From: a virus
Virus record (IMG/VR): IMGVR_UViG_3300028909_000017
Coordinates: 1 to 64,000 of that record
Direction: 5' to 3' (one strand)
Length of the DNA: 64,000 nt
Part shown: piece after piece, positions 12,573-60,118 of the stretch
How the letters are laid out: each line of letters begins with the position of its first letter
Position numbering within the stretch: the stretch's first letter is position 1
Position numbers and translations under genes: made by a program
The notes under the pieces: generated by a model
The model's input: only the letters and a program-made list of their open reading frames with translations
The model's database searches: none
What the model was told of the DNA's origin: nothing

Positions 12573-12602
12573 AAAAAGGATGCCTAATATTAGGCATCCT
12601 TT
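12573..12602 (-). terminator. Rho-independent terminator ending the early small-gene array
   Basis: AAAAAGGATGCCTAATATTAGGCATCCTTT palindrome. Confidence 0.75.
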
Positions 12603-12789
12603 ATTGTGATAATTTTTCTTCTATTTCTTTTGCTATATATTGTCTAACACCCAACCAAGCATTTTGGTAAGAACTCATTGGAATTGAACATATACTCCAA
12701 TTATTAATTATTATTTGATAACCTGATCTTGATTTAAATAATTTTGCAGATGGATATATTGAAAGAACAAATTCTTTATCAGACATCAC
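12601..12789 (-). CDS. Small 'YP...AW' paralog family member
   Basis: MSDKEFVLSIYPSA...NAW...EKLSQ. Confidence 0.75.
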   Translation of the reverse strand: MMSDKEFVLSIYPSAKLFKSRSGYQIIINNWSICSIPMSSYQNAWLGVRQYIAKEIEEKLSQ

Positions 12790-12976
12790 TTTCTAATTTC
12801 TTTGCAATTTTATTTTTAATAGCAATTGCTACTTCTTCCCAGGCTGCCTCCTCGGAAATACAATAACCAGATAAATTTAAATCACTATTATTCCATACAA
12901 CATATAAATTTATCCATGTGGCTTGAATAATTTTTGCAGTTGGATATATTGAAAGAACAAATTCTTTATCAGTCAT
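12779..12976 (-). CDS. Small 'YP...AW' paralog family member
   Basis: MTDKEFVLSIYPTA...AAW...KKLESDV. Confidence 0.75.
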   Translation of the reverse strand: MTDKEFVLSIYPTAKIIQATWINLYVVWNNSDLNLSGYCISEEAAWEEVAIAIKNKIAKKLESDV

Positions 12977-13244
12977 TGGATTCCAATCTTTTCACCATAT
13001 TGCCTTGAATATTTTTCCAGGCAATTTCCCATAGGTTACTGTTGTTATCTAGTAAAACTCCTTCGGGATAATATATAGTATCGGTTAATTTAATTACATT
13101 GTCAATATCGTCTTCGGTGAAAAGAAGAGGAATCTGATTTGATAAGATATAGGCGTATGCTGGGCCAGCTTCCGGCCATCCATACCACCTTAAGGTAGCA
13201 TAAGGATAAACCTTTTTTACTTGTATTTTAAAATCTGTAGACAA
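12969..13244 (-). CDS. Small 'YP...AW' paralog family member
   Basis: VKKVYPYA...LWEIAW...KRLESND. Confidence 0.7.
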   Translation of the reverse strand: MSTDFKIQVKKVYPYATLRWYGWPEAGPAYAYILSNQIPLLFTEDDIDNVIKLTDTIYYPEGVLLDNNSNLWEIAWKNIQGNMVKRLESND

Positions 13245-13443
13245 TTCTGGCCTGTTCTAGCGAATAGGGAGATAACTCAAGTTGGACCTCATCTCCGGGT
13301 TCGATACGAATATTATTTTTTCGAAGTCTTCCGCCTAGATATGCTGTAACGGTTTGACCACTGGGAATTTCTACTTCCCATTTGGTGTTTGGTAATACTT
13401 TGGTAATTTTTCCTCGTAAGGAAACTTGTTCATCTGAAGGCAA
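13228..13443 (-). CDS. infA: Translation initiation factor IF-1
   Basis: G.ITKVLPN...V.....AYLGGRLRKNNIRIEPGDEVQLELSPYSL...RIVYRF is the IF-1 signature; AGGAG RBS, TTG start. Confidence 0.93.
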   Translation of the reverse strand: MPSDEQVSLRGKITKVLPNTKWEVEIPSGQTVTAYLGGRLRKNNIRIEPGDEVQLELSPYSLEQARIVYRF

Positions 13444-13458
13444 TTATATTCTCCTGTT

Positions 13459-13656
13459 CTATCTTTCTAACATATTTATCATTCGAAAATTAATTATTGA
13501 TTTGGCGTAATCCCATGCTTTATCCTCACTTGTCCAACTAATTGAAATTTGTGCATCATTAGATTTAATATAATGTAGTTCACTTAACAATGTTGATTTA
13601 GTGACGAAACATTTAGCATCCGGATAAATCGATTGTACGTATTCTTTGGAAGTCAT
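13459..13656 (-). CDS. Small 'YP...AW' paralog family member
   Basis: MTSKEYVQSIYPDA...KAW. Confidence 0.75.
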   Translation of the reverse strand: MTSKEYVQSIYPDAKCFVTKSTLLSELHYIKSNDAQISISWTSEDKAWDYAKSIINFRMINMLER

Positions 13657-13865
13657 GAGTTTATTTTTTCTAGGAATTCATGCATACATTTTCTTTTTGC
13701 ATATTCCCATGCTTGCATTTCGGTTTCATGAATTAATAAAGATAAAGGATATTCGTTTAAACAAATTCTGAAACCTACCGGTTTAACCTCGTCAGGGAAG
13801 CCAATGTATACCGTTATTAAATTGGCAGTTGGATAAATAGATTTTACGAATTCTTCATCATTCAT
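13653..13865 (-). CDS. Small 'YP...AW' paralog family member
   Basis: MNDEEFVKSIYPTA...QAW. Confidence 0.75.
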   Translation of the reverse strand: MNDEEFVKSIYPTANLITVYIGFPDEVKPVGFRICLNEYPLSLLIHETEMQAWEYAKRKCMHEFLEKINS

Positions 13866-14143
13866 AATAGCAATTTTATATATATTTCTGCTTCCTTGAG
13901 ATTATTAAAAATACCTATTTTAATTTTTTTATAATCGTTTTCCGAATAATAAGCATGAATTACTTTAATTTTTGGAAGTAAAATTCCACAATAATAAAAT
14001 TCATATCTATTAAATGTGTCAACCTTTATTGCTGTGACGCAATTATTATGAAATTCATTATATTTATTTTGAAAATAAAGGAATAATGAAAAACCAATAG
14101 AAAATGATGCAAATATTAAGGTAACATTCGTTATTATTTGCAT
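13862..14143 (-). CDS. Small membrane-anchored hypothetical protein
   Basis: N-terminal TM helix; ends F..L.EAEIYIKLLL. Confidence 0.6.
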   Translation of the reverse strand: MQIITNVTLIFASFSIGFSLFLYFQNKYNEFHNNCVTAIKVDTFNRYEFYYCGILLPKIKVIHAYYSENDYKKIKIGIFNNLKEAEIYIKLLL

Positions 14144-14349
14144 AATTTCTTTACCATTTCAATTTCCAAATTTCGTTTAGCTGAATGTCAAGCCAATTCA
14201 GGTGAACTACCCTATCCCAACATTCTGTTTCCATATTTTTCAAAATTTTCAACGGTCATCCGGTGTTCCCATATAACGACAAAACCATTGTGAGATGTTA
14301 TTTCGGCCAAGTCGGGATAAACATATTTAATTAATTCAACATCGGTCAT
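14134..14349 (-). pseudogene. 'YP...AW' paralog with two nonsense codons
   Basis: MTDVELIKYVYPD...MLG*GSSPELA*HSAKRNLEIEMVKKLCK; TAG at 14212-14214 and TGA at 14188-14190, the latter at the conserved AW tryptophan. Confidence 0.8.
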
Positions 14350-14353
14350 AGAA

Positions 14354-14551
14354 TCATCTTTTCCTCGAATGTTTAATTAATTTTGCATACCATTTCCAAG
14401 CTGATTGCTCTGATTGAAAACCTGATAATTTACCGCCATTTTGCAGTTCGGTTCTATAGTTTATGGGAGTTTCAATACAACATCCATACTTTTTGTAATA
14501 CATACAAATTGTTCTTGGATATACCGACAGAACAAATTCTTTATCCGTCAT
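14354..14551 (-). CDS. 'YP...AW' paralog (C-terminus probably frameshifted)
   Basis: MTDKEFVLSVYP...SAW; an alternative frame gives FEEKMIL* with the usual ATGA overlap at 14346-14349. Confidence 0.65.
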   Translation of the reverse strand: MTDKEFVLSVYPRTICMYYKKYGCCIETPINYRTELQNGGKLSGFQSEQSAWKWYAKLIKHSRKR

Positions 14552-14751
14552 GAATTTAATTTCCTTGCAAGTTGCTCACCAATTTTATCTTTTGCATTTT
14601 TCCATGCTTCAATACTCGTATTTCCTTCGCTTATCATTACAGAGTCGGCATTTCCCGGATAAGGAAAAGAAGAAAAAATTACGACACTGTATTGAGAGTA
14701 AGAAATTATTGCAGTTGGAATTATTGAAAGAACAAATTCTTTATCGGTCAT
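14548..14751 (-). CDS. Small 'YP...AW' paralog family member
   Basis: MTDKEFVLSIIPTA...EAW...RKLNS. Confidence 0.75.
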   Translation of the reverse strand: MTDKEFVLSIIPTAIISYSQYSVVIFSSFPYPGNADSVMISEGNTSIEAWKNAKDKIGEQLARKLNS

Positions 14752-14969
14752 AATATTAATTTATCTTTCATATTTTTCCGAATAAATTTTGCTGCTTTAT
14801 CCCATGCTAGTTTTTCCGATCTTGAGTCCAGTAGTATGCGCATCGTTCCTTGAACGTAAAAATTTTTATCGGTATTATTTGATCGATAAATACCAACAAT
14901 TTTTGCATCTGGATATACCGCTAAAACAAAATCCTTATTTGAGCAAATTGACATAAAGTTTTGCCTCAT
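14748..14969 (-). CDS. Small 'YP...AW' paralog family member
   Basis: NKDFVLAVYPDA...LAW...DKLIL. Confidence 0.7.
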   Translation of the reverse strand: MRQNFMSICSNKDFVLAVYPDAKIVGIYRSNNTDKNFYVQGTMRILLDSRSEKLAWDKAAKFIRKNMKDKLIL

Positions 14970-15183
14970 TCATGGTTTTAAATGTTGCAATTTTTTCCGA
15001 TGTACACTCCACCGATAAAATACTTGAAATTCGATAAACACCAATCAAGCGATATAAAAATCCACATCTTTTAAATTGATAGGATATTGTTGTTATTTCC
15101 ATCATGCGTGAAATAACATTCGATTTATTTTTAATAATGGCCGGAGTATGATGCAAAATTACTTCGGCCATTGAACTCTTCAT
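14935..15183 (-). CDS. Small hypothetical protein
   Basis: 82 aa; ends F.TMNEAKLYVNLLK like 13862..14143. Confidence 0.6.
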   Translation of the reverse strand: MKSSMAEVILHHTPAIIKNKSNVISRMMEITTISYQFKRCGFLYRLIGVYRISSILSVECTSEKIATFKTMNEAKLYVNLLK

Positions 15184-16726: not shown

Positions 16727-17764
16727 ATGGCGACAGTGAAAATCATCCGTGGTTCATACCGTAATAATGAGGTTAAGAACCAAACGTTTACTCTGCTGAA
16801 AGGTTTTACTGTAACGTCGACTGGGGCGCATGTAACGGTTGACGGTACTCAAGTTTTTGGTCGTGAAAGTGTTCGTGTAAGGGTTTCCGGACCACGTGAT
16901 TTTGTCATTGACGAAACAGTCGATGAAGTATCGGAACAAGAAATCAATGGTGTTATTGACGATGAGCCAGAAATTGTTGAAACAGATGAACAGATTTTGG
17001 CTCGTATTAGCAAGCGTTTTGATATTCTCAATAAGTTGACGTTGGGAGCCCGTCAGGGAGATATTCGTGCATTGTTTGTAACCGGTGCTCCTGGAATTGG
17101 AAAGACCTTTGGTGTCGAGCAAACTTTGCAGAGCGCTGGGCTGGCAGAAGTTTTTTCTGATATGCCGCCCACATATGAAATTATCAGTGGTGCCGCCAGT
17201 GCGGTTGGTCTGTACATGAAACTGTATGAATTTCGAGCGGAAAATAATGTCCTGGTGTTTGATGATTGTGATTCAATTTTCACCGACGAGCTTTGCTTGA
17301 ATCTCATGAAAGCCGCTCTTGATACAAGCAAGCGGCGGATGATCCATTGGAATGTTGAATCATTTTCCCTCCGTAAGGATGATGTTCCTAATTCGTTTGA
17401 GTTCCAGGGGAGTGTAATTTTTATCAGCAATATTAATTTCAAGAAGGTTCGGTCCGAACGGACTCGTAGTCATCTAACAGCCCTGATGTCCAGAGCGCAT
17501 TTTTTGGATCTCACAATTCATACCGATCATGAAAAGTTGCTTCGAATTGAAGATTTGGTAACCAATCATCGTATGCTCGAGCAGTTTAAATTGAATGAAG
17601 ATATGAGCGTTAAGGTTATGGCTTTTATTCGTGAAAATGCATCGCGTTTTAACGAATTATCCCTGCGTACGGTTATTAAATTGGCGGGCTTGGCTCGGAC
17701 GTTTGGTGAAAATGACGAATGGCGTGAAGTTGCTTGCCTCAGCATGATGGGTAATGTTATTTAG
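16727..17764 (+). CDS. AAA+/P-loop ATPase, early
   Basis: GAPGIGKT Walker A, VLVFDDCD Walker B, VIFISN sensor 1, SR finger, LSLR. Confidence 0.85.
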   Translation: MATVKIIRGSYRNNEVKNQTFTLLKGFTVTSTGAHVTVDGTQVFGRESVRVRVSGPRDFVIDETVDEVSEQEINGVIDDEPEIVETDEQILARISKRFDILNKLTLGARQGDIRALFVTGAPGIGKTFGVEQTLQSAGLAEVFSDMPPTYEIISGAASAVGLYMKLYEFRAENNVLVFDDCDSIFTDELCLNLMKAALDTSKRRMIHWNVESFSLRKDDVPNSFEFQGSVIFISNINFKKVRSERTRSHLTALMSRAHFLDLTIHTDHEKLLRIEDLVTNHRMLEQFKLNEDMSVKVMAFIRENASRFNELSLRTVIKLAGLARTFGENDEWREVACLSMMGNVI

Positions 17765-17800: not shown

Positions 17801-18052
17801 ATGGAAGAAACTTTAGGTAAATTACAGGATTTACTATCGTTATGGGAGGAAACTGGAATTCCTTTTTCGGCAGATTCTGCTCCACTTGAGGATAAATTGG
17901 ATGCGGTTAAACGAAATTATCGATCTATCGGTTGTCTATTAGATCAACCCGAAGATTTACAAATGGCAGCAGTTACTGCAGATTCAAGAGCATATACATA
18001 TATACGGCATCCATCAGAATCGGTTAAAATGTTTATGAAATTGCTGGGGTGA
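17801..18052 (+). CDS. Small protein with DUF4116-like repeats
   Basis: LDAVKRNYRSIG / QMAAVTADSRAYTYIRHPSE repeats like 59615..60118. Confidence 0.65.
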   Translation: MEETLGKLQDLLSLWEETGIPFSADSAPLEDKLDAVKRNYRSIGCLLDQPEDLQMAAVTADSRAYTYIRHPSESVKMFMKLLG

Positions 18053-18622: not shown

Positions 18623-18835
18623 ATGGCATCTAAAAAGGCTAGAATAGCAAAACAAAAGGTATTGCAAATATATCCCAGCGCACAATTGCGTCGAAAAGGA
18701 TCATATTGTTGCATTGGTGGATTATTTGATTTCGGGCCTGAGATGCGAGGATATTTTGCAAGTAATTCTGATAAAGCGTGGATAGTTGCACAAGAAGAAA
18801 TAAATGAACGATTCGTGAATACATTAGCACAATGA
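18623..18835 (+). CDS. Small 'YP...AW' paralog family member
   Basis: KQKVLQIYPSA...KAW. Confidence 0.75.
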   Translation: MASKKARIAKQKVLQIYPSAQLRRKGSYCCIGGLFDFGPEMRGYFASNSDKAWIVAQEEINERFVNTLAQ

Positions 18836-19050
18836 AAAATTACAAAAATTTAGTTTTAGAAATATATCCTCTCGCTATATTGGTGAAATATGGATCAGGT
18901 GTATATAGAATAGTCAATAATGATTTATATGGATTTCATGGAACAGATGATTTAACCTATGATGGTGAATGGTCCGGAAATGAAGAAGATGCTTGGGCCG
19001 ATGCGTATAAATTTGTACAGACACAATTTTTAGAAAGGTTGTCCGAATGA
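18832..19050 (+). CDS. Small 'YP...AW' paralog family member
   Basis: KNLVLEIYPLA...DAW...ERLSE. Confidence 0.75.
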   Translation: MKNYKNLVLEIYPLAILVKYGSGVYRIVNNDLYGFHGTDDLTYDGEWSGNEEDAWADAYKFVQTQFLERLSE

Positions 19051-19283
19051 TGTCTGATGTTGAAAAAGCGGTCAGGGAAAATATCCCTCATAAATATGAG
19101 GTTAAAAATATATGTGTATCTATTAATCCCGTTAGATATCAAGTTTATCAATTTTTTGATTCTTATGAATTTCGATCTGTAGCTAAAGTTGCTATCGGAA
19201 TTGACTCTAATACATATGAAGGCGCATGGAAAAATGCCTGGGAATTAATGCAGGTTAGAATTCTGAAACGGTTATTGCAATGA
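19047..19283 (+). CDS. Small 'YP...AW' paralog family member (divergent)
   Basis: ...GAWKNAW...KRLLQ; ATGA overlaps. Confidence 0.7.
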   Translation: MMSDVEKAVRENIPHKYEVKNICVSINPVRYQVYQFFDSYEFRSVAKVAIGIDSNTYEGAWKNAWELMQVRILKRLLQ

Positions 19284-19582: not shown

Positions 19583-20091
19583 ATATTTTCTTTTCAAGCG
19601 ATCATCATTTCGATCATGATAGAATTATTAATTATTGCAATAGGCCGTTTAGATATGTTGAGGAAATGAATGAACGATTAATTCACAATTGGAATGTACG
19701 AGTTAAGCCCGATGATGAAGTTTATTATTTGGGAGATTTTGGCCTGCGTGGGCCGGAACAATTATTACCTTTTAGACGTCGTATGAATGGCAATTGGAAG
19801 ATTTTTGTTGCAGGAAATCATGATAGAAAAACTGTATTATCAGATGGTGAATTAGCGGATAAAATAATTAAATTTTCGCCAACTACTTTTCATTTACTGA
19901 AGCTCGACAATATTAACTTTAGCTTGAGTCATTGTCCATTGAATATTATACCGGGAACGACAATTAATCTTTTCGGTCATACTCATCAACCTAATGCGCT
20001 GCAATCATCCAATTCGATTAATATTGGTGTGGATGCATGGAATATGTTTCCCGTTGAATTATCGGAAATTAAAAATCTAATTAAACCTTAA
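19579..20091 (+). CDS. Calcineurin-like metallophosphoesterase
   Basis: SDHHFDH, LGDF, GNHD, LSH, GHTH motifs; ATG 19579. Confidence 0.9.
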   Translation: MNIFFSSDHHFDHDRIINYCNRPFRYVEEMNERLIHNWNVRVKPDDEVYYLGDFGLRGPEQLLPFRRRMNGNWKIFVAGNHDRKTVLSDGELADKIIKFSPTTFHLLKLDNINFSLSHCPLNIIPGTTINLFGHTHQPNALQSSNSINIGVDAWNMFPVELSEIKNLIKP

Positions 20092-20719
20092 AATAATTGG
20101 AAATTAAATCGATATAATATCTACTGATAGCTATATATTCTCCGTGTATAGCTATTTCGTTGCCTGATAATAAGGCTTCTGAAAGATTATTATTTTTAAA
20201 TCCAAAATCATTAATAAATTTATCTGATTCTTCTCTGGATGGAATATTTTTGATTGAATATTTTTTAACCGAATAGCAATTATATAATTCATTAGCTAGT
20301 ATTTTACTACTACCGATATCTGGTATTTTTTTACTCCAGGTAAAAGAAAAACCATTAATTGGGAATATTATATAGATCAATCCAAATTCCCTTGCCTGAC
20401 TTTCGGCAGTTGTGCATAAAATACTATTTGTCCTTAATGCAGTAAATCCTGATGTTTTTAAAAATAAATCTAACATTGCTTGCTGGGGTTGGGATTGCCC
20501 AGTGGGATTTCTATTTATCGGGGATTGAGTTTTGAATAATGGTGTTTTTGAAAATTTTGGATCAAGGCCACGATATAAAAAAGTTTCTGTTCCTTTTAAT
20601 GCCGTTAAAAATTCCGAGCAATTTTCATCAATATACTCTAGTGCCGTATAGATATCTTCTTCGGAAATTTCCGGTGGAGTCGGTTTTTTCTTTTTGAATA
20701 TTATTTCATTAATGCGCAT
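20081..20719 (-). CDS. ADP-ribosyltransferase-like paralog (probable internal head protein)
   Basis: FLYRG...RTNSILCT...NEIAIHGEY (R-S-E pattern); MRINEI start; TAAATA-N5-ATG. Confidence 0.6.
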   Translation of the reverse strand: MRINEIIFKKKKPTPPEISEEDIYTALEYIDENCSEFLTALKGTETFLYRGLDPKFSKTPLFKTQSPINRNPTGQSQPQQAMLDLFLKTSGFTALRTNSILCTTAESQAREFGLIYIIFPINGFSFTWSKKIPDIGSSKILANELYNCYSVKKYSIKNIPSREESDKFINDFGFKNNNLSEALLSGNEIAIHGEYIAISRYYIDLISNYFKV

Positions 20720-20727
20720 GTTTGTAT

Positions 20728-21970: not shown

Positions 21971-22045
21971 ATGTGTATTTATTCTTTTAAAATTAACTAC
22001 TTAACTCGATTATATTCACTAACTAAAGTTGGTGGTTATGCGCTC
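20734..22045 (-). mobile_element. IS200/IS605-family TnpB-only element (no TnpA)
   Basis: Left-end hairpin CACCAACTTTAGTTAGTG, right-end hairpin ACCACGTCCTTAAGGACGTGGT ending GTTCAC, tnpB between them. Confidence 0.85.
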
Positions 22046-22068
22046 GTGAATTAGAGATAAATATGTTT

Positions 22069-25016: not shown

Positions 25017-25024
25017 AATAGTAT

Positions 25025-25774: not shown

Positions 25775-25776
25775 AT

Positions 25777-26451: not shown

Positions 26452-26488
26452 ACTTGTATTTATTTTTATTTTACTATATAATAATTAT

Positions 26489-27037: not shown

Positions 27038-27040
27038 ATA

Positions 27041-27676: not shown

Positions 27677-27705
27677 AAAAGGAGACCTATATAGGTCTCC
27701 TTTTT
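27675..27705. terminator. Bidirectional terminator
   Basis: AAAAAAGGAGACCTATATAGGTCTCCTTTTT palindrome between convergent genes. Confidence 0.8.
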
Positions 27706-28427: not shown

Positions 28428-28429
28428 TG

Positions 28430-29263: not shown

Positions 29264-29307
29264 GATGATTAATTATAACATGTCTGACAATATAGATAAA
29301 TACAAAT

Positions 29308-34766: not shown

Positions 34767-34957
34767 TTAAAGACTTAATTTTTTAATTAGTAAGGCATCA
34801 TTTGCTTCTTGTTCGGTATCATATCGACCTTTAATATTAAACCATAGTCCAGAAATATTAACCTGAATTATGAATAAATTTTTTGAGGTACGATGCACTC
34901 GAGAATTGTTTTCAATAAGCAATTTATCGGATATATATAATGTAATAATTTTTTCAT
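34767..34957 (-). pseudogene. Frameshifted tandem paralog of 34954..35154
   Basis: Near-identical 3' end RYDTEQEANDALLIKKLSL; frameshift in the A-run just after ATG. Confidence 0.7.
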
Positions 34958-35154
34958 AATGATAATTTTTTGATTAGTAAGGCATCATTTGCTTCTTGTT
35001 CGGTATCATATCTATCTCTTAGCCACCACCATTCTTCACCAAATTGTACCTGAATTCCAAACAAATTACCTTTCGATGGATAAATTCTGGTCGTATGATT
35101 GAGAATTGCTCCATCCACCATATACCACTCCAACCTAGTTTTAATGGTTTTCAT
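34954..35154 (-). CDS. Small protein, 'EA..LLI.KLS' family
   Basis: 66 aa ending EQEANDALLIKKLSL. Confidence 0.7.
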   Translation of the reverse strand: MKTIKTRLEWYMVDGAILNHTTRIYPSKGNLFGIQVQFGEEWWWLRDRYDTEQEANDALLIKKLSL

Positions 35155-35156
35155 AA

Positions 35157-35335
35157 TTATTCCGATAATTTTAAAATCAATAAATAATCTTCTGCTTCTT
35201 TTCGGAAATTAAACGGTTTATCTACATATGTAAACCATCCGACTCTGAGAATATTTTTTATGCTGAAATAATGACGCCGCTCTTCAATTAAATATTCTTT
35301 ATAGAATTAATTCGAAGTCCAGATTTATCAATCAT
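35157..35335 (-). pseudogene. Frameshifted 'EA..LLI.KLS' family member
   Basis: Second frame ends RKEAEDYLLILKLSE*. Confidence 0.6.
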
Positions 35336-35340
35336 GTTCT

Positions 35341-35533
35341 TCACTCTTCTAATTTCAAAATTAATAGGTCATCTTCGGCTGATCGGAGGGTTTTTATATC
35401 GTTTATTCTTGTAAATCCATGCATATGCAACTTGATTTGTTCCAGCCGGGTGGTATAAAATCCTGAATTTAATAGACCATCAATTATTACCATACTGTTC
35501 TATTTTATATTCTTTATTAGTCCTAACATTCAT
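35341..35533 (-). pseudogene. Disrupted 'EA..LLI.KLS' family member
   Basis: In-frame TGA at 35480-35482 plus a frameshift; ends SAEDDLLILKLEE*. Confidence 0.6.
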
Positions 35534-35715
35534 TCTGATAATCTCGAAATCAATAAATAATCTTCTGCTTCCCTTTTTGTTGAAAAGGTTGGAACTAATA
35601 TTGATCCAATCGGCCATAACCAATACCATGTCGGTATATAATGTAACTCATCGATTGAATCTTTGAATTGAACCCCCCAACATTTTCCTAATGGGTGGAT
35701 TCTATATTTAATCAT
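35530..35715 (-). CDS. Small protein, 'EA..LLI.KLS' family
   Basis: Ends FSTKREAEDYLLISRLSE. Confidence 0.7.
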   Translation of the reverse strand: MIKYRIHPLGKCWGVQFKDSIDELHYIPTWYWLWPIGSILVPTFSTKREAEDYLLISRLSE

Positions 35716-35907
35716 TTTTGAACAGTTTTACTTTTCTTGGGAATATAGGTAACAAGAAAAGTAAAACTGCCGTCCTTATTTCTGGTATAATTCAACACAC
35801 CTTTAATTTTTTGGGTATGCAATTCATCGATAAAATCGAGCGCAGCAATAGTAGAAGTAAACTCAGAAATTTTTTCTTTCATTGTGATACCTTTCTTATT
35901 TGGATGA

Positions 35908-36156
35908 TTATGAAATTAATTTTTCGATTAAAATAGCAGCCTCGGCTTCTTCGCGAGACGAGAATATTTCAAATGAAGTAGAATGTAATGTTCTTGCAAA
36001 TAGTGTATCCCAATGTTTTACTTCGACTAATACACCGTTCGGAATAATAGACATATCATCTATAATTTCAAATGTTCGAACATATTTTGGGTTGACAATG
36101 TACGATAGCTTACCCATTATTGATATGCTTTCTTTTCCGGTAAGCCAACCAACCAT
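35908..36156 (-). CDS. Small protein, 'EA..LLI.KLS' family
   Basis: Ends FSSREEAEAAILIEKLIS. Confidence 0.65.
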   Translation of the reverse strand: MVGWLTGKESISIMGKLSYIVNPKYVRTFEIIDDMSIIPNGVLVEVKHWDTLFARTLHSTSFEIFSSREEAEAAILIEKLIS

Positions 36157-38682: not shown

Positions 38683-38734
38683 TCCCTCACTCACAAATAT
38701 AGTATAGCAATTTTTGGTTTAATTGTCAACCGAT

Positions 38735-39177: not shown

Positions 39178-39837
39178 TCACTGTGATAATTTATAGATCA
39201 TCATTTGTTCACGAGGCAATAATACTGAAGCGCTTGAATAAATTGTAGATTTTATTCGGCCGAATTTATTTTTACAGTCATTGTCTTTTCGGTAAATTTA
39301 ATCACTTCACCGATTTGCATTTCATTACAACTTGTAAATGCGATCCAATCTCCTAAATAAATTGGACTGCCGATAATATCCAGCATGAATGTTATTACGG
39401 GTTTCGGTGGGGTTGCAACTCGCTTCTTTTTTGCATCGATTCGATCAAGTTTGATGGCCGATTTAATTTCTGATAAAATCGGATCAGATGCATCAACTAC
39501 CATATATAAATCGGATGTTGACCGTGCCCGGCGACTGTAAACAATACCTAAATTATCTTGACTATTTTTAAAATCGCCGGCACCCGCTTTGGAATATCCG
39601 TATTTAGATAAAATCTTGGAAATTCTATCGGTGCCATTTATATTACTACTAATGACAAATTTATAAGCAAGTTTTCTTTCTTCGGTTTCACATATACTCA
39701 AAATATATCCGGCATATTCTTGATTACATATCGGACATGATTTTGCCTGATTATAATTTGAATAAGAATAATCTTGGTATAATTTTGATGTATAAAAATG
39801 TTTATTTTTTGCAATATGCTAGAACATATATGCTCAT
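39178..39837 (-). pseudogene. Doubly frameshifted paralog of 40065..40838
   Basis: MSIYVLAYC / KHFY...CPIC...DIIG...G.VIKF.EKT / ...EQMMIYKLSQ* across frames. Confidence 0.7.
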
Positions 39838-40064: not shown

Positions 40065-40838
40065 TTATCCTAATGAAAGTTTATGTATCATCAATTGATT
40101 TTCATCCAGCACGACAATTTGGGATGAAGTAATGTTATATTTAATACATTGATTATTGGGGTTGCAATGCTCAATTTGAACAGTTTTGTTGGAAAATTTT
40201 AAAATTTTTCCATACCGTAAATAACCATATGCAACAAATCCGACATATTGACCCACGTGTAATTCCTTACCAATAAAATCACTGAACGTATTGATAATTT
40301 TGGGTTTTTTGGTAATGTTTGATTGCTGCTTTCGTATATTTGATAGCAAGCCAGCCATATCTTTTAATAATTTTGTATTATCCGATACGATAATCATTTT
40401 GATGGTTTTGTTTTTGGAATTAGGTATGAAGAAACAGAATTCATTGTCGTTTTGAAATGCAATTTCATAACCTTTACGGCTTTCATTAAGAACAAACCCA
40501 TATGAATTAATCAATTGGATGATTGAATTATTTGAAAATGATTTAATATATTTCATCGAGTCATGCGGTATATGGTCTGTAAATAAATTTACAGAAAATG
40601 TTTTGCAATTTATGGACGCCGAAGTATTTTTACGCAGGTCAACATAGTCAATTATCCAATCAGAAGTCGAATAGCCGAGTCTAATACAATCTGGGCAATT
40701 TCGGTCATACTTTAATTGAGCCAATCCCAGCCGTTCGATCCGTTCCTGATTGCAGACAAAATAATGATTATGACCGCACTTAGCCAATATCGGTTTAATA
40801 GTCAATATCGGTTTAAATGTACTATCAACATTTCCCAT
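40065..40838 (-). CDS. Hypothetical protein with N-terminal Zn-binding motif
   Basis: CGH...CPDC; ends LMIHKLSLG; GGAGG RBS. Confidence 0.65.
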   Translation of the reverse strand: MGNVDSTFKPILTIKPILAKCGHNHYFVCNQERIERLGLAQLKYDRNCPDCIRLGYSTSDWIIDYVDLRKNTSASINCKTFSVNLFTDHIPHDSMKYIKSFSNNSIIQLINSYGFVLNESRKGYEIAFQNDNEFCFFIPNSKNKTIKMIIVSDNTKLLKDMAGLLSNIRKQQSNITKKPKIINTFSDFIGKELHVGQYVGFVAYGYLRYGKILKFSNKTVQIEHCNPNNQCIKYNITSSQIVVLDENQLMIHKLSLG

Positions 40839-53016: not shown

Positions 53017-54108
53017 TTAATCCTCTCGAAATGTTTCAGTTGATTTGGGTTCAATTAATTTCCAGATGGTATTAGATACATCTTTCCCATCTAACAAACC
53101 AAATAAAATTGCTGAATAATATTTGTGATCTGATTGCAAGAAATATCTAGCAATGTCCTTACGTGTAGAGAATACTGGCATACGATCAAAAATTCGTTGT
53201 GCATCCGTTAGAATTGTGTAGTAATCACCATCTAATTGAGAATTCCATTTTCGTAGCCAGGTTATAAATCCTGACGGCATTTTAGGATCGGTTAGCCAAG
53301 ATGAAATTTCATCATCCTTGCTCTCTTTTTTCAATTCCCAAATGCTACGGGGATTTAATCCAGTTAAAATTCTATGGAGCTCGCAATAATTTTCGAATTT
53401 TAACTTTACTTTAAGACCATTGTCGAAAGTTGCGACATACCCTTCTTGGTTGGGAATATTTTCACTCATGCAGGTATTCAATAATTTTTTATGATCTTGC
53501 ACAAGTTTAAGATTCATTGCTTGACAATAGGATTTTAAATCTGAACGAGATAATTCTTTACCGGTTGAATTATTAATTGCCCCGATAACAATTAGTCCCT
53601 CAAAATCATATTCAACAACAATACGATTTTCGGGATAAATTATTTCGGTTAAAAGAGTATATTCTTTTAATAAATCAAGTCGGGGATAATTTTTTTGTAA
53701 CCAATTAGTTGCCCACAATGATTGATCGCTCGCAAATGATCCACGTGTTGCAACATAATTTTGATCTTCCCATTTATATAAAATTCCCAGAGAACCATCC
53801 ATTTTTGTCGTAATCGAAGAAATATTAGTGGGTAGATTTTTTTCTAAAGTTTCAGGATGCCGATCATCATTAATGTTCCAAAATTTTGGAAACGGCCTAG
53901 CGATAATTTCCATTGTTTCAGTATTAAAAATTAACCCTCGGCAGATGTTCATTTCCTGACCCCAAACCAAATCTTTATCATATTGAGCGGTTGGGGTATA
54001 ATTTAAAATTGCGAGAGGGAATGAAGAATGAAATTTCCTCGAAATTTGGCGAGAATTTATCAATGATTCAAGTATATCGATATCTAAGATTTCATTTAAT
54101 TTCGTCAT
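53017..54108 (-). CDS. rnlA: T4 Rnl1-like RNA ligase
   Basis: CRGLIF, RPFPKFWN, KMDGSLG, EIIYPENRIVV, EGYV, KVKLK. Confidence 0.9.
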   Translation of the reverse strand: MTKLNEILDIDILESLINSRQISRKFHSSFPLAILNYTPTAQYDKDLVWGQEMNICRGLIFNTETMEIIARPFPKFWNINDDRHPETLEKNLPTNISSITTKMDGSLGILYKWEDQNYVATRGSFASDQSLWATNWLQKNYPRLDLLKEYTLLTEIIYPENRIVVEYDFEGLIVIGAINNSTGKELSRSDLKSYCQAMNLKLVQDHKKLLNTCMSENIPNQEGYVATFDNGLKVKLKFENYCELHRILTGLNPRSIWELKKESKDDEISSWLTDPKMPSGFITWLRKWNSQLDGDYYTILTDAQRIFDRMPVFSTRKDIARYFLQSDHKYYSAILFGLLDGKDVSNTIWKLIEPKSTETFRED

Positions 54109-54234: not shown

Positions 54235-54585
54235 TCATTCTTCTAATTTTTTTATTAATTCTTTGCTTTGTTCGATTTTGAAAAGTTCTACTGCCTTTAA
54301 CCCCCAATTCGGATCTTCCAACCATTCAATCGGCAATTTAAATTCATATCCACGCAAATAATTAATAATTATATAACTACTGTAAAATTTAATATCTATA
54401 ACGCCTATAACATCCGAGCCTTTTAAACGACTCCATATGTAACCTAAAGTTTTAAATCGAAGTTCTTGCCACTCCATATAAATTTGTGAAGCCCGATCTT
54501 CTATTGATTTCTTTCTTAGAAGAAAAGATCGATATGAACCTATAGTTGTTAGCTTATTCTGATAATTTTTCGATGAGAGCATCAT
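54235..54585 (-). CDS. Small paralog family member (W..PIEWL.D.NW)
   Basis: Ends ELIKKLEE; start uncertain. Confidence 0.55.
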   Translation of the reverse strand: MMLSSKNYQNKLTTIGSYRSFLLRKKSIEDRASQIYMEWQELRFKTLGYIWSRLKGSDVIGVIDIKFYSSYIIINYLRGYEFKLPIEWLEDPNWGLKAVELFKIEQSKELIKKLEE

Positions 54586-54880
54586 TTTGAATTTCCACTA
54601 GATAATTTTTTAGATTTAATTCCCAATTATTATCATTCAACCATTCAATAGGAATTGGAATTTCGTATGGAGTATTTCTATTAATCCAAACGTAACTTCC
54701 TATAATTATTGATGTTTTTACAGGCGTTATTTCATATGTAATTTCCTGCGCCCAACAAATTTTTCGAATTATTTCAAGATATATTTGCTGCCAACGAATA
54801 TATAATTGCTCGGCTTTACGCAAATCACGTTTATTTTTACGCCAAATACGTACATTAGAAATTAAGGTATCTAATATCAT
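54554..54880 (-). CDS. Small paralog family member (W..PIEWL.D.NW)
   Basis: MILDT start at 54880; ends ALIEKLSE. Confidence 0.6.
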   Translation of the reverse strand: MILDTLISNVRIWRKNKRDLRKAEQLYIRWQQIYLEIIRKICWAQEITYEITPVKTSIIIGSYVWINRNTPYEIPIPIEWLNDNNWELNLKNYLVEIQNDALIEKLSE

Positions 54881-54884
54881 TCTG

Positions 54885-55199
54885 CTAGTTTTTAACAAAT
54901 AATCGTTTTCTTTCACGCTCAAATCGTTTACGAAGCCAATCTTTCCAATTTGGATCACTTAAACAATGTTGCGGTATTTTAAGGGCTCCTTCTTTTCGGG
55001 CGTTAATGTAAACTTCTTTTTCATTATAGGTTATTGTGCGAATTGGAAAAATTGTTTTTTGGCTGTAATATCCTTTTCCTAAACCATGACCAACTTCTTC
55101 AAAACTGATTTTTTGCCAATCATTATAAATGATTTTTGAAATTTCTTTAATAATTTTATCATTTACAACTGTTTCTTGATAAGTTTTATCAGATATCAT
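54885..55199 (-). CDS. Small paralog family member; last codons probably frameshifted
   Basis: IP...LSDPNW; adding one A gives LFVKKLAE* with ATGA overlap. Confidence 0.6.
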   Translation of the reverse strand: MISDKTYQETVVNDKIIKEISKIIYNDWQKISFEEVGHGLGKGYYSQKTIFPIRTITYNEKEVYINARKEGALKIPQHCLSDPNWKDWLRKRFERERKRLFVKN

Positions 55200-56311
55200 T
55201 AAGATAAATCCTCTTCGGATGATTTATATTTCTGATTAAGCCATTTTAAATATAGCGGAAATCCACGTTTAGCAACTCTGGGAATTTCTGGAGCAATAAC
55301 AATTCCTTCTTTAATATGTAACTGCTTTCCAGATACTGTTTCCATACCGCCACTTAATTTTTCAAATACAGCGGGATCGAACGGTCCTCGATATAAAATA
55401 GGTACCCAATGTTGATTAATAAAATCATGCCCAAAATATTTTTCAACTTCATCAACCGAAAGTTCTCGACCATCAATTCTTAGTCGAAATAATTTAATAG
55501 TTGGAGATGTTTTCCCATAAGAAAAATTCTTTTGACACGGAATAACTTCCCCAATTAATTGTACATCGTGTTTGAATAAATAAAAATTCTCGGATTCAAC
55601 CCATTGGCATTGTATAAAATCAATTAATTTAGAATTTTCAAGTGCCTGCCAATATAAATTCTTTTCAGACCTTTCGATAATTTGATCTCTTGAATTAAAT
55701 CCTTTGCTTGAAACACCAATTTCCCCAGTTTTAGAAAAATAGGCATTTATTTGACTTCCATTAATTTTTTCCGAAACTATAACTTGCTCTTGTTTTCCAG
55801 TTGTGAATTCATCGGAAAACAGGCGGAATTGCTCGACATCGTGATGTGCTGCGGATGGTTCGAACTTAATTGAATCAAGGGAATTAATACTTCCTGCCAT
55901 ATTATAAGGAATTTGCGGTTCATATTTGTAAATATTAAGTTTTTCTGATAAGTCAATATTTAGAGGAATGTCATTAACCGAATCCCATTCAGGAACATTT
56001 TTCAGTACCCAATCAATAGGAATAGTAATTCCCTCGGAAAGTTCACCACGTAATCGAACCGATTTAACTCGATTTTTATCCGAACCAGAAAGATAACTAA
56101 TGCCTGTTTGGGAATTTACATATTCACTCTTAAGCGAATCCGGAAGAATAGCTCGTTCGGGAGCAAAGACAACTACATCCCCATTTTCATACTGTCCTTT
56201 TCCGACAACAAGTTGATGCATTCCAATTCGTCCAATTTGCATACGATCTGCATTCGGATGATCTAATAATTCAATTTTTGATCCAATAATTTCCCAAATA
56301 GCCATTTTCAT
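55199..56311 (-). CDS. RNA ligase, DRB0094/Rnl2-like with N-terminal OB-like domain
   Basis: HPNADR, VRLRGELSEG, SEKINGS, GEV, WVPILY.GPF, KEGIVI, LKW. Confidence 0.88.
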   Translation of the reverse strand: MKMAIWEIIGSKIELLDHPNADRMQIGRIGMHQLVVGKGQYENGDVVVFAPERAILPDSLKSEYVNSQTGISYLSGSDKNRVKSVRLRGELSEGITIPIDWVLKNVPEWDSVNDIPLNIDLSEKLNIYKYEPQIPYNMAGSINSLDSIKFEPSAAHHDVEQFRLFSDEFTTGKQEQVIVSEKINGSQINAYFSKTGEIGVSSKGFNSRDQIIERSEKNLYWQALENSKLIDFIQCQWVESENFYLFKHDVQLIGEVIPCQKNFSYGKTSPTIKLFRLRIDGRELSVDEVEKYFGHDFINQHWVPILYRGPFDPAVFEKLSGGMETVSGKQLHIKEGIVIAPEIPRVAKRGFPLYLKWLNQKYKSSEEDLS

Positions 56312-56612: not shown

Positions 56613-56622
56613 TTATATCTCC

Positions 56623-57558
56623 TTAAAAATTTCCAATAGCTCCGCAAAATTCACAGGTTTTCTTTTGATCAATTCCTACATTTGGACAATTTAATGAATG
56701 ATGTGGAGTTCCTCTTACTGGAATACACATCAATCCATTTTTCCTCCAGCAATCAGCAATAACGCGATTTCGGTCGTCAATTGTAAATTTAATTTGATCT
56801 TTTGGAACCATACCCAGTAATTCATTAAGAATCTCTTCTTTGATAATAAAATCGGATCGATTGTCCCAACCGTGCCTCATGAAAATATGATGAAAAGGAA
56901 TATTGTTCCGATTCATCCAATTTATTGTGGAATCACCACAGGTCGAATGTCTGCCAGAAACAAAGAAAATTGTATGATCTTCATAAAGACTTTGCACCCA
57001 TTTAACAATTACTGGATAAATTTTATCTTTTCCAACATGCAATTCATCATAAGGACTACGAATTCCATCTGAATTAGAAACTGTTCCATCAATATCGACC
57101 AAAATAATTGGTCTATTAATATCAAATGGTAATCTTTTACTCAGTAAAAATTGACGGGAGATTACTGCTCGCCCGACGTGTGATTTTCCAACCCGAATAT
57201 TATCGTTACGAACACAATCATCGAAACTTGTAGTCATGCGATGAATTCGAAAATTTACATTGTTACCAGCAAAATTTTCCCACGTTTTAACCGTATTTGG
57301 ATTTAGATGTGTATTATCTAATAGAATTGACTTGCCCTCTTTAAGGGCATCCGCCGCTCTAGATCTTTCAACTTGCGCAACGAATCTTTCGAATTTAAAA
57401 CCTGATGGGGCAGTTGGATCATTAACTAATTCGGTTCTTAAATCATCTCGATTTAATCGAATATAATTTGAATTTTTATTGACAAAATCTTTGGCGAATG
57501 TAGATTTTCCACTGCCTGATTCACCAATTAAAAGTAAAATTTCTTGACTGTTTAACAT
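56623..57558 (-). CDS. pseT: Polynucleotide 5'-kinase / 3'-phosphatase (T4 Pnkp-like)
   Basis: GESGSGKST, NRDDLR, DNTHLN kinase; DIDGT, SGR, KEE, IDDR HAD phosphatase. Confidence 0.92.
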   Translation of the reverse strand: MLNSQEILLLIGESGSGKSTFAKDFVNKNSNYIRLNRDDLRTELVNDPTAPSGFKFERFVAQVERSRAADALKEGKSILLDNTHLNPNTVKTWENFAGNNVNFRIHRMTTSFDDCVRNDNIRVGKSHVGRAVISRQFLLSKRLPFDINRPIILVDIDGTVSNSDGIRSPYDELHVGKDKIYPVIVKWVQSLYEDHTIFFVSGRHSTCGDSTINWMNRNNIPFHHIFMRHGWDNRSDFIIKEEILNELLGMVPKDQIKFTIDDRNRVIADCWRKNGLMCIPVRGTPHHSLNCPNVGIDQKKTCEFCGAIGNF

Positions 57559-57570
57559 ACCGATTCCTTG

Positions 57571-58251: not shown

Positions 58252-58268
58252 TAATTAAGACCTTTCTA

Positions 58269-58968
58269 CTATGAAATAACATCATTATAACGATAATGAT
58301 ATACTCTTTTTAATTGAGTTATTTTACCAATACTTTTTTCAGCAATTCCGGTTATATTATATATTTTTCCAACCTCATATTTCTGATCACTAAAAAAGAA
58401 AATAATGGAATAGGTTAAGTCAGGATAGGTAATAATTGCATTGGTTGCCCATGTTCCGAACCGGGCCTTGTAAATGCAATCAACAACATGAATTTGAAAT
58501 TCTTTTCCCCTTGCAAGATAATGGAACGCTATTTGAAATAAGGTCATCGAGATGCCGTCGTTGTTCCATTCGTTCATTATGTGTTTTATGTGATTCCGGA
58601 AGAGAAGCAATTAGTGGCAAGTCACCACCATTAATATCAATATTTTCAAGAGATGCAACTTTAACCGCAGCTTTGACAAAATTATTTGCATCGTCGGAAA
58701 AAACAAATCGAATCATTGCCCCGTAATCTTCTCGAATAGCTTTTCCTTGAGCGTAATCGTCTGATGTAATATCTGTTTGATCGCCATTGAGCAAAATTCT
58801 CATAATAGCAACATTAGTTAATTTACTTGACTGGGTTTTAATAGGGCTACGCAAGAAAGTGGAAACTATACTTCGTTTTACATATTCACCATTAATTCTT
58901 TGGGCAGCCGCTGCCGCTGCCCAAACCTGACTCGCCGGGAAAAATTTTTCAGTCATCATAATCTCCAT
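58269..58968 (-). pseudogene. Frameshifted phage protein (C-terminal OB-like region)
   Basis: ...PLSCKGK then KEFQIHVVDC... after one extra A near 58503-58506. Confidence 0.65.
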
Positions 58969-59019
58969 TCTGTTGTGGTTTGCACAGTTCTTTCCCGGTG
59001 GTTTAATTGAAAAATCTGT

Positions 59020-59202
59020 TTAGGTGATAATCAAAACAACATCGTTATCGGGATCCTTGACATTCAACACGCCATCAGGACGATAATGAAAATGCATGCC
59101 TTGCCCATGTAGAGCATGAGCCTTAGCAACAGTAATCTTTGTTTCGGTGCGTTTCGAATCACCGTTATCTACTACTTCGATGTAATCAGACTTCCTTGCC
59201 AT
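59020..59202 (-). CDS. Small hypothetical protein
   Basis: 60 aa, AAAGGA RBS. Confidence 0.55.
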   Translation of the reverse strand: MARKSDYIEVVDNGDSKRTETKITVAKAHALHGQGMHFHYRPDGVLNVKDPDNDVVLIIT

Positions 59203-59407
59203 TTTTGATTCCTTTCAATTAATGGGTAATTGTTGTGATGCGGTAATTAACCCTACTTTTCCATCTTGTCCAAAATAAATTCATATATTCGACAGATTAA
59301 TAATATTGCTATCAAAAATCCAATGGATTTGGCGAACGTAAAAATTTCAAACATATTATTCCTCTACTTTCAAATACAATTTTAACAGGGTTACAATTGA
59401 ATGTCAA

Positions 59408-59557
59408 CTACAACTTCGGAACCGTGCGCAAATAGTCAATAACCTGTGTAAATGCAGTTGCTTGCCCTTGTCCGTAATCATCACTCAGATCCTTATTTTT
59501 CTCAATGACCTCAGTAGTAAGCCATACGATAAATTCATCTAGTTGTTCCTTCGACAT
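59408..59557 (-). CDS. Small early protein
   Basis: MSKEQ start after promoter-RBS cassette. Confidence 0.55.
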   Translation of the reverse strand: MSKEQLDEFIVWLTTEVIEKNKDLSDDYGQGQATAFTQVIDYLRTVPKL

Positions 59558-59614
59558 ATCTGATCTCCTCACTGAAATAATTATAGCAAAGTTCGGTTTT
59601 AATGTCAACCGAAA
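59558..59614 (-). promoter_or_regulatory. Early promoter-RBS cassette (identical copy at ~60117-60173; related copy at ~45465-45511)
   Basis: TTGACA-17-TATAAT-TATTTCAGTGAGGAGATCAGAT. Confidence 0.85.
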
Positions 59615-60118
59615 TTAATCAACTAATTTAACATACAGTTGCACATTAATTGTTGGATTCCTGATAAAGTCAATTGACGAGCCATCTTGTTGAACTGCGG
59701 CCAATTGGACTTGTTCAGATGGATTTTCGATATTTTGAATTACCCACCCATCTTGTTGAACTGCGGCCAATTGTACTTGCTCAGATGGATTTTCGATATT
59801 TTGAATTACCCACCCATCTTGTTGAACTGCGGTCAATTGGACTTGCTCAGATGGGTTTATAATATGTTGAATTGCATAGCCATTTTCGTGAACTGCGGTC
59901 AATTGGACTTGCTCAGATGGGTTTATAATATGTTGAATTGCATAGCCATTTTCGTGAACTGCGACCAATTGCAGTTGTTCAGATGGGTTTTTAATATATC
60001 GAATTGCATAGCCATTTTGCTGAACTGCGACCAATTGTAGTTGTTCAGATGGGTTTTTAATATATCGAATTGCATAGCCATTTTCCTGAACTGCCGCCAA
60101 TTGTTCCAATTCATTCAT
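59615..60118 (-). CDS. DUF4116-like 22-aa tandem repeat protein
   Basis: Seven repeats of QL.AVQ.(N/D)G..I..I.NPSEQ (66-bp unit). Confidence 0.8.
   Translation of the reverse strand: MNELEQLAAVQENGYAIRYIKNPSEQLQLVAVQQNGYAIRYIKNPSEQLQLVAVHENGYAIQHIINPSEQVQLTAVHENGYAIQHIINPSEQVQLTAVQQDGWVIQNIENPSEQVQLAAVQQDGWVIQNIENPSEQVQLAAVQQDGSSIDFIRNPTINVQLYVKLVD

Follow-up and report, generated by a model that had tools for sequence, protein, structure and literature searches.

Short sequences at the extreme C-terminus of unrelated proteins are known both as degradation signals and as docking elements. In the ssrA tag leucine stands third from the end, and the last residues are small and non-polar. Hub-docking tails include that of SspB, which binds the ClpX N-domain, the clamp-binding tails of T4 and bacterial replication proteins and the C-terminal tip of SSB; these are flexible peptides behind linkers, and their partners are known. 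Here we describe a C-terminal tail carried by small proteins of unrelated families in a window of 64,000 nucleotides (nt), which covers bases 1-64000 of the 125,414-bp virus record IMGVR_UViG_3300028909_000017 (hereafter G000), a fragment of a jumbo-phage genome. The tail consists of two hydrophobic residues, any residue, Lys or Arg, Leu, Glu or Ser, one more residue and the stop codon. It shares with the hub-docking tails the logic that we propose below, one short C-terminal element on unrelated proteins serving one partner, but it is predicted to be helical, it has no linker, and the partner is itself part of the proposal.

Among the C-terminal degrons that ClpX recognises, ssrA represents C-motif 1; a 2025 article sorts the ClpX degrons into five classes and describes them as unstructured (PMC12723719). 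Like these degrons, the tail is a short extreme-C-terminal sequence on many unrelated proteins, and the phage encodes a ClpX. Unlike ssrA, which is added, it is encoded in each gene, and in our models it forms a helix rather than an unstructured peptide; its end is polar instead of small and non-polar, and it tolerates extension. Tens of tandem paralogues of a tiny domain are also found in Bacillus phage G, another jumbo phage, with about 35 zinc ribbons (PMC7824862). The jumbo-phage expansions in that review are single-family, with no cross-family motif in the text examined, whereas the tail described here crosses families; ClpX appears in the same text only as a possible translocase or assembly chaperone. 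A search of the full text of articles found no tail shared between families of small phage proteins, in agreement with the initial annotation of this DNA, which had proposed the tail from the letters alone and knew of no description of it.

Genes were called with a simple codon-usage scorer, which gave 253 genes for G000 (34% G+C; CheckV completeness 59%), 166 of them encoding at most 150 amino acids (aa); open reading frames (ORFs) up to this length are called small here and those above it larger. The scorer takes the first start in each frame, which leaves C-termini unaffected, and may return false small ORFs; it also missed two real carriers of the tail, with ends at 39181-39198 (-) and 54557-54577 (-). 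As the strict pattern we used the regular expression of the initial annotation, [LIVMFYW]..[KR]L[SEL].$, unchanged, and a looser, broad pattern was counted as well. The strict pattern closes 19 of the 166 small proteins and none of the 87 larger ones, against an expectation of 0.15 from its internal rate in the same proteins (0.0009 per position) or of 0.18 when the last 30 aa of each protein are shuffled (at most 3 in any of 500 rounds). Leucine occupies the third position from the end (-3, with -1 as the last residue) in 56 of the 253 proteins, and makes up 8.8% of residues overall. With paralogues collapsed, a strict carrier was present in 12 of 130 families (0.18 expected, maximum 2 in 1000) and a broad carrier in 18 of 130 (2.5 expected), counts that are sensitive to the BLAST and hidden Markov model (HMM) thresholds given the very short proteins.

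This large enrichment over composition-matched C-termini bears out the initial annotation, and all eight of its tail strings that were searched for were found in the window where it had placed them. It had put the number of carriers between 12601 and 60118 at about 28. By eye we count 23 in the window, including variants with one or two extra residues and the two ORFs dropped by the caller, and the 60 small ORFs called in that span yield 10 strict and 14 broad carriers. The statement that core enzymes and virion proteins lack the tail holds in so far as no protein above 150 aa has it, a set that is unsorted into enzymes and virion proteins. The tail occurs genome-wide in G000, with large clusters also at 65, 81-84, 97-110, 112, 117 and 121-125 kb.

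With the same caller, the strict pattern was found in none of 45 small ORFs in the first 50 kb of T4 and in none of 57 in the first 50 kb of T5. Around ClpX homologues in 80 viral loci, two relatives of G000 included, it occurs in 3 of 1218 small ORFs, and Leu(-3) in 95 of the 1218, which is about the background frequency of leucine. This near-absence argues that the tail is not general to small phage proteins or to AT-rich genomes. The tail motif is real and clade-specific.

Families of carriers were built by iterated HMMs after removing the last 12 residues. Family A (16-18 members in G000) has the consensus M-T-D-K-E-F-V-L-S-I-Y-P, then A-W-x-x-A, then the tail; family B (14-15 members) begins M-x-D-K-N-G-x-x-L-x-I-G-D-x-V; family C has five members at 34.7-36.1 kb, in which four of the five invariant columns lie in the tail helix and the fifth is the start Met. 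The bodies of the families gave hhalign probabilities of 0.0-0.1% for every pair, and AlphaFold2 predicts two different folds for A and B. The carriers therefore belong to unrelated families, as initially claimed, and do not reduce to one homologous family.

These two models, used without coordinates, form our structural basis. That of family B (predicted local distance difference test, pLDDT, 92.8) is a small beta-barrel with strands at 14-17, 20-30, 33-37 and 42-46 and one helix at residues 55-64 of 65. Its best Foldseek matches are Spt5/NusG KOW and PWWP domains (E 0.02, TM about 0.73-0.74). It may belong with the five-stranded KOW, chromo and PWWP SH3-like barrels that have a C-terminal helix: Spt5/NusG KOW and PWWP domains align with it over 55-64 columns, helix included, but the Foldseek E values are only 0.02-0.1 and family B has no Pfam match. 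Three of 14 family B members match phrog_2251; in the protein at 40065-40838 this match covers the barrel (profile 3-49 of 74) and the tail lies outside it. Two family B proteins had a precomputed Pfam label, PF23835, but a search at E <= 10 did not recover it.

The family A model (pLDDT 80.9) is alpha-beta-beta-beta-alpha (H3-10, E15-18, E24-27, (E35-36), H42-63) with a last helix of 22 residues, similar to dsRBDs and to the HicB N-terminal domain (UPF0150). Comparison with dsRBDs and HicB-N gave Z 4-5.9, a range that the comparison tool calls common, over 52-65 residues for the dsRBDs, and a TM of 0.56 for the HicB type. Family A differs from dsRBDs in that the two members searched have no Pfam (dsrm) or sequence match, and in having its own N-terminus and a KLES end. 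In dsRBDs a basic dsRNA-binding motif stands at the start of helix 2; the family A helix starts S/T-E-x-x-A-W-x-x-A, which is not that motif. Families A and C had no Pfam family and no significant PHROG match among the members scanned.

Taken together, the carriers comprise at least two folds, proteins with very hydrophobic segments, which look membrane-spanning by eye, and several others. Independent carrier families are probably fewer than the 12 of 130 given above, a few singletons being diverged members of B or A. A homologue search with the singleton at 65329-65625 recovered only itself. Families A and B also share the start M-x-D-K (M-T-D-K-E-F and M-V-D-K-N-G; 12601-14969 and 18623-19283 of the window and 121-125 kb of the record), and in family A the residues T2, K4 and E5 reach 2.6-3.5 bits across 120 of the best-scoring representatives, those 55-85 aa long; this N-terminus may share its gene-junction grammar or its surface with the tail. 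The carriers and associated features lie in the window as follows.

12601..14969 (-), family A array (tails, tail-less HMM, fold model)
12601-12789 (-), family A carrier ending EEKLSQ, last gene before a terminator
12779-12976 (-), family A carrier ending KKLESDV, motif plus two residues
12969-13244 (-), family A carrier ending KRLESND, motif plus two residues
13459-13656 (-), family A carrier ending INMLER
13653-13865 (-), family A carrier ending LEKINS
13862-14143 (-), gene interleaved in the family A array, hydrophobic N-terminus, ending IYIKLLL
14354-14551 (-), family A member without tail
14548-14751 (-), family A carrier ending ARKLNS
14748-14969 (-), family A carrier ending KDKLIL
14935..15183 (-), singleton carrier ending EAKLYVNLLK, broad pattern only
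16727..17764 (+), P-loop ATPase of 345 aa, phrog_1250
17801..18052 (+), DUF4116-like small protein ending KMFMKLLG, weak motif fit, phrog_17056/5925
18623..19283 (+), three family A genes: 18623-18835 ending VNTLAQ, 18832-19050 ending LERLSE and 19047-19283 ending LKRLLQ
34767..36156 (-), family C array
34767-34922 and 34954-35154 (-), family C genes ending LLIKKLSL
35341-35493 (-), family C gene ending LLILKLEE
35530-35715 (-), family C gene ending LLISRLSE
35908-36156 (-), family C gene ending ILIEKLIS
39181..39198 (-), end of a family-B-type domain, MMIYKLSQ
40065..40838 (-), Zn-motif protein of 257 aa with a family B domain in its C-terminal ~75 aa; ends in LMIHKLSLG, motif plus one residue
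54235..54958 (-), two paralogues: 54235-54585 ending ELIKKLEE and 54554-54958 ending ALIEKLSE (LIEKLSE located at 54557-54577 (-))
59615..60118 (-), DUF4116 repeat protein ending QLYVKLVD, weak fit
61687..62907 (-), phage ClpX, beyond the span of the original finding

For the Zn-motif pair the initial annotation had given one tail as read, IHKLSLG, and one as reconstructed, IYKLSQ, and both were located. The second sits in another frame than the 149-aa Zn-motif ORF at 39252-39701, which matches the family B HMM, and the gene at 39178-39701 (-) is apparently a split or frameshifted paralogue of 40065-40838. The DUF4116-like endings listed with the tail (KLLG, KLVD) are present as well, but their fit is poorer, with a hydrophobic residue at -2, and they look like the first half of a further DUF4116 repeat. 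The protein at 59615-60118 matches PF13475 (DUF4116) in Pfam with E 5e-15 and 55.1 bits against a cut-off of 24.9; the one at 17801-18052 is linked to DUF4116 only via related PHROGs.

The window genes gave no nucleotide or protein match in 50,697 phage records (blastn, tblastn). Relatives were found by searches with ClpX, the 345-aa ATPase and one family A protein; they are fragments of jumbo phages or near-complete ones of up to 360 kb, and all of them, smaller fragments included, carry the same families in tandem arrays. Four are referred to by handle:

G001, 65 kb, CheckV completeness 64%
G002, 196 kb, CheckV completeness 53%
G006, 37 kb, CheckV completeness 10%
G009, 360 kb, CheckV completeness 90%, found via family A and thus independently of ClpX

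Scanning metagenomes with the ATPase alignment yielded 12 loci, of which most are short and one (L136) is a near copy of another (L134). Family B has 17 matches in G001 and 35 in G002. For family A, 44 members were counted in G009, and 12 kb of L151 contain at least 25. The tail recurs in the G006 arrays. In G009 the strict pattern is found on 24 of 443 small and 2 of 221 large proteins and the broad one on 60 of the 443 small. Leu(-3) is present in 28 of 94 small ORFs of G001, where five proteins end exactly in KLES: a family A member, a hydrophobic pair, a 236-aa protein and a homologue of the G000 protein at 65329-65625. Leucine is replaced by methionine in G002 (L123-L133), with Met(-3) in 54 of 174 small ORFs and the ending S-x-E-E-x-L-Q-Y-x-M-E-Q. 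Beyond these genomes, an HMMER scan of 1.84 billion cluster representatives from public metagenomes returned 760 for family A. Leu(-3) is found in 100 of 132 outside family A representatives, Lys or Arg at -4 in 94 and Glu(-2) in 65; 64 of the 132 match the strict pattern, and KLES is the commonest ending, occurring 22 times.

The codons behind the tail are scrambled. Leu(-3) in G000 uses all six (TTA 22, TTG 16, CTT 4, CTG 4, CTC 2, CTA 2), Ser(-2) uses AGT and TCN, and Lys or Arg at -4 uses AAA, AAG, AGA and CGG. At tail positions holding the same residue, codon identity between families is 606 observed against 560 expected (ratio 1.08; 1.17 within families). The KLES ends of G001 are written CTG GAG TCG, TTG GAA AGT, CTA GAA TCC and TTG GAG TCT, and their stop codons differ too. 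Such scrambling argues against an RNA motif and against recent exchange of DNA, and places the selection at the protein level; the tail of G000 is selected as protein.

Our preferred explanation, held tentatively, is that the tail is a shared interaction surface on unrelated scaffolds, and we infer that the contact is intermolecular rather than only intramolecular. The carriers are small proteins of several unrelated architectures that make up the tandem arrays in a clade of jumbo phages encoding ClpX. Their variable bodies (dsRBD-like, SH3/KOW-like and others) would give each protein its own target, and through the conserved helix end they would all engage one component, which could be a phage or host hub or the carriers themselves. 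The fixed distance to the stop would then be due to gene packing and probably not to recognition of a free end: the protein would stop one or two residues past the last one needed, with the next gene starting at an ATGA overlap, and in some relatives the codons at -3 and -2 (NTG GAG) double as the Shine-Dalgarno (SD) sequence of the next gene. The early timing of the arrays is an assumption from their layout only. Jumbo phages carry tens of kilobases of tandem tiny ORFan genes, and a cross-fold, clade-specific tail offers a handle on them, with the prediction that the carriers share a partner or associate with one another. Should the tail serve for docking or degradation, it would be a case of a phage coordinating dozens of takeover proteins via one hub.

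We favour the shared surface because the same seven residues recur on different folds, on hydrophobic and on longer proteins, and in this clade only, because polar positions are as conserved as core ones, and because the family B tails of G001 are hydrophobic on more than one face. In the 120 family A representatives Leu(-3) reaches 3.61 bits, polar Lys(-4) 2.66 and Glu(-2) 2.36, against 0.6-1.8 for other surface columns of the helix. Five to six consecutive positions are hydrophobic in the G001 family B tails (A-M-L-W-M-L), more than one helix face provides. We also compared profiles of the last four residues of families A, B, C and the Zn+B type in G000, G001, G002 and G006. Different families within one genome have 1.49 expected identities, against 0.95 between genomes, and even the same family across genomes has fewer, 1.09; only 10 of 5184 label arrangements were as extreme as this within-genome likeness. 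In G002 the ending MEQ is common to families A and B, and B and C tails are near-identical in G001 (MLWMLEQ and MLKMLEQ) and in L150 (FFLRKLEQ and FVLRKLEQ). No charge-swap pattern emerged from the mutual information between N-terminus and tail in family A, and the best pair, T2 and -1 (z 3.8), may reflect array junctions. With a 23-column HMM of the C-terminal helix of family A, all matches at E <= 0.05 were A-like; of the 40 best sub-threshold matches outside family A, 17 were C-terminal and aligned over the last 7-11 columns only, which suggests that the shared element is the helix end and not a whole mobile helix.

Several observations weigh against a shared surface. The predicted domain helix runs into the tail with no linker in between, and most of each model, helix included, can be aligned with solved KOW or dsRBD domains; to judge from the models, intramolecular packing alone could conserve the hydrophobic positions. 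The co-variation between families resides at -3 and -2 (240 and 76 of 5184 arrangements as extreme) and is weak or absent at -4 and -1 (460 and 2434 of 5184). As -3 and -2 are the positions where relatives embed GGAG, it need not reflect a partner, and this SD overlay can account for much of it. Finally, singleton carriers, notably the KLES ones of G009, may be diverged family A proteins unseen by the tail-less HMM, in which case fewer of the carrier families would be independent.

A second explanation comes close behind, and we consider it nearly as likely: the tail is the end of a scaffold helix with no common partner. It would pack on its own domain and cap the helix, and the likeness would come from descent, an old 3' end common to B, C and several singletons having survived when new genes of the arrays formed through partial replacement, combined with junction rules: an end soon after the last core Leu, an NNA-TGA overlap and an SD word at -3/-2. 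The claim of the initial annotation that the tail ends an amphipathic helix is supported by the models, which are helical to within one or two residues of the end (to residue 64 of 65 in family B and 63 of 65 in family A, with pLDDT of 88 and 77 in this block). The tail is thus predicted to be the last two turns of a structured C-terminal helix and not a free peptide, with good confidence in two folds, as a scaffold end would be. Conserved flanks around a hypervariable middle in family A also look scaffold-like. When tails were included in hhalign, only B and C aligned, over the tail alone (15 columns, 1.4%), in keeping with a common 3' end, as is the near-identity of B and C tails within a genome. 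Most array junctions of L151 have the TCA TGA form of the ATGA overlap, and the SD overlay is seen in G001 and G002.

Extra residues after the motif, from one to six in family A of G009, fit a scaffold end as well. In G000 they occur in 2 of 18 family A members, KLES or RLES being followed by two residues that come from a longer overlap with the next gene. Among the 44 family A members of G009, one residue follows Leu-[EASG] in 27, two in 5 and three to six in 4 (8 unscored), and endings in L154 include KLEGNSD and KLEYDS. As judged from the models and these extensions, the free end is probably not strictly read; a helical, extension-tolerant tail is compatible with a contact through the helix surface.

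A scaffold end leaves other observations unexplained. It does not account for convergence across folds on seven residues in this clade only, against 3 of 1218 ORFs elsewhere, nor for the same tail on apparently membrane-spanning proteins and on the 236-aa protein. The polar residues Lys(-4) and Glu(-2) match the core in conservation, the fully scrambled codons imply that any shared origin is old and that the tail is still selected in every family, and the junction rules fail to predict the carriers in G000. If the tail proves to be a scaffold end only, it would be a clean example of gene packing, through ATGA overlaps and embedded SD words, shaping protein termini, including the Leu-to-Met switch in one lineage.

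Another possibility, which we consider unlikely, is that the tail is a C-terminal degron or docking signal for the phage ClpX working with host ClpP. ClpX could then clear the phage's early proteins on schedule, or the carriers might act as adaptors that drag host proteins, for example defence factors, to destruction. Were the models and this reading right, a handle gripped by ClpX working with host ClpP would make a library of tiny, fast-evolving domains into a multi-specific system of targeted degradation, an outcome with a low probability in our judgement. The phage ClpX matches PF06689 and PF07724 in Pfam, with a C4 zinc finger and an AAA+ module, and a GYIG loop (the pore-1 loop) and an IGF loop (the ClpP-docking loop) are visible in the alignment. 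At the position that we take to be that of the RKH loop of E. coli ClpX it has S-K-R-S. Homologues are found in G001 (54% identity), G002 (47%) and G009 (56%), and ClpX is present in every sufficiently sampled genome with arrays. As in ssrA, leucine is third from the end, and one family C protein of G006 ends, exceptionally, in EKLAA. The phage ClpX is thus a candidate, and a candidate only, for a reader of C-terminal signals.

Against this, the degrons of ClpX are described as unstructured (PMC12723719), while the tail is predicted to be helical; the helix, the lack of a linker and the tolerated extensions argue against a classical degron read via the terminal carboxylate. The last two residues are mostly polar (E or S at -2; E, Q, K or S at -1). 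A search for ClpP in the 125-kb record (59% complete) gave none, and 78 of the 80 ClpX-bearing viral loci have no such tails within 10 kb, so co-occurrence of tail and ClpX may only reflect shared phage ancestry. When two copies of the ClpX N-domain (residues 1-62) were modelled in complex with family B, the score was 0.00 in a run without controls, a result that weighs neither for nor against binding. The other candidate partner named in the initial annotation, the ATPase at 16727, does head a tagged array as it had noted. This 345-aa protein matches phrog_1250 (E 2e-85) and, weakly, AAA_16 of Pfam, has no PDB relative, and is conserved with 57% identity in G001 and 43% in G002.

It is very improbable that the tail is a mere by-product of overlapping translation signals, the ribosome-binding site (RBS) or the ATGA overlap, with no protein-level meaning, though such signals do leave a trace in relatives. 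Among Glu codons, GAG accounts for 71% at position -2 of G002 tails but for 21% in gene bodies (p 9e-15); the corresponding shares in G001 are 50% and 11% (p 1e-4). At -2 of G002 tails, GAG is the codon in 34 of 44 when an ATG follows within 14 nt, against 3 of 8 when none does. An ATG lies within 14 nt of the stop in 47 of 59 G002 carriers, compared with 47 of 115 non-carriers, and GGAG stands in one fixed frame in 38 of the 47 carriers with a near ATG. In G001 and G002, where codons ending in TG are also enriched at -3, an SD word is demonstrably embedded at -3/-2 (NTG GAG, giving GGAG), and this overlay can account for part of the fixed spacing between tail and stop in the relatives. Met (ATG) at -3 in G002 would retain the G that a synonymous change from TTG to TTA would lose. 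The use of SD sequences before ATG starts rises from 0.40 in G000 to 0.49 in G001 and 0.60 in G002.

For G000 itself, where the initial annotation had offered RBS and ATGA constraints as a test, the translation-only explanation is largely refuted. Strict carriers are equally frequent at any distance to the next start (7 of 48 overlapping, 4 of 35 within 15 nt, 3 of 30 at 16-60 nt and 5 of 52 further away), and SD-like words are not enriched, being present in the last 21 nt of 6 of 21 coupled carriers against 16 of 51 coupled non-carriers and before 3 of 18 genes coupled to a carrier against 20 of 61 otherwise. Glu(-2) is GAG in 25% of G000 tails and 12% of bodies, which is not significant, and GAA in 12 of 16 tails; Ser, Ala and Thr are also common at -2. 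Leucine uses six codons, and positions -7, -6 and -4 are outside any SD. Neighbouring genes in the family A arrays mostly join through GAA TCA TGA, which overlaps the next ATG; were GGAG present in such a KLES-ATGA junction, it would be only 2 nt from the ATG and would not work as an SD. The carrier before the terminator (12601-12789) keeps its tail.

Recent exchange at the DNA level, by gene conversion or cassette shuffling at conserved junctions, is just as improbable: the arrays are tandem and tightly packed and the B and C tails of G001 share codons over 21 of 24 nt (read from codons), but in G000 codon identity between families shows no excess, and the KLES tails of G001 differ in Leu, Ser and stop codons. 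Three further ideas were considered and set aside: a membrane-targeting helix, the A and B tails being acidic, a ligand for PDZ domains or tail-specific proteases, the last residue being polar, and a type IV secretion signal.

Recognisable enzymes in the window are a CCA-adding enzyme, two RNA ligases, a polynucleotide kinase-phosphatase, TnpB and ClpX. The first four lie as follows.

37357-38694, CCA-adding enzyme
53017-54108 and 55199-56311, RNA ligases (Rnl1-type and Rnl2-type)
56623-57558, polynucleotide kinase-phosphatase

They make up a full RNA-repair set, all of it with homologues in G002; G001 has homologues of the CCA-adding enzyme and of the Rnl1-type ligase. No tRNA genes were found in the window. 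The TnpB-type gene at 20728-21813 (-) has OrfB_IS605 and Cas12f1-like TNB domains (E 1e-24), and a 55%-identical copy is present in G002.

Other paralogous families of G000 have endings of their own. One comprises nine larger proteins (63-313 aa) at 20081-30622 of the window and 67017-67799 of the record, many of which end in HFGI or YF followed by further residues. Another has 10 proteins (record 90-98 kb and 118 kb; window 27041-27676) with endings such as ENNLPLE, NNLPLED and TPLGTDD, and here ordinary paralogy may explain the likeness.

In the region 46673-50345 (+) of the window, G+C content, 0.32 overall, jumps to 0.54 at 48-50 kb, within a 746-aa gene. This gene is related by BLAST to 7835-8587, to 46673-48085 (with a Baseplate_J match) and to a 1438-aa protein at 73.8-78.1 kb. 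Convergent gene pairs are split by perfect palindromic hairpins with A/T runs at 3447-3462 and 27676-27705 (AAAAGGCCCTATATAGGGCCTTTT, AAAAGGAGACCTATATAGGTCTCCTTTTT), which are likely bidirectional terminators.

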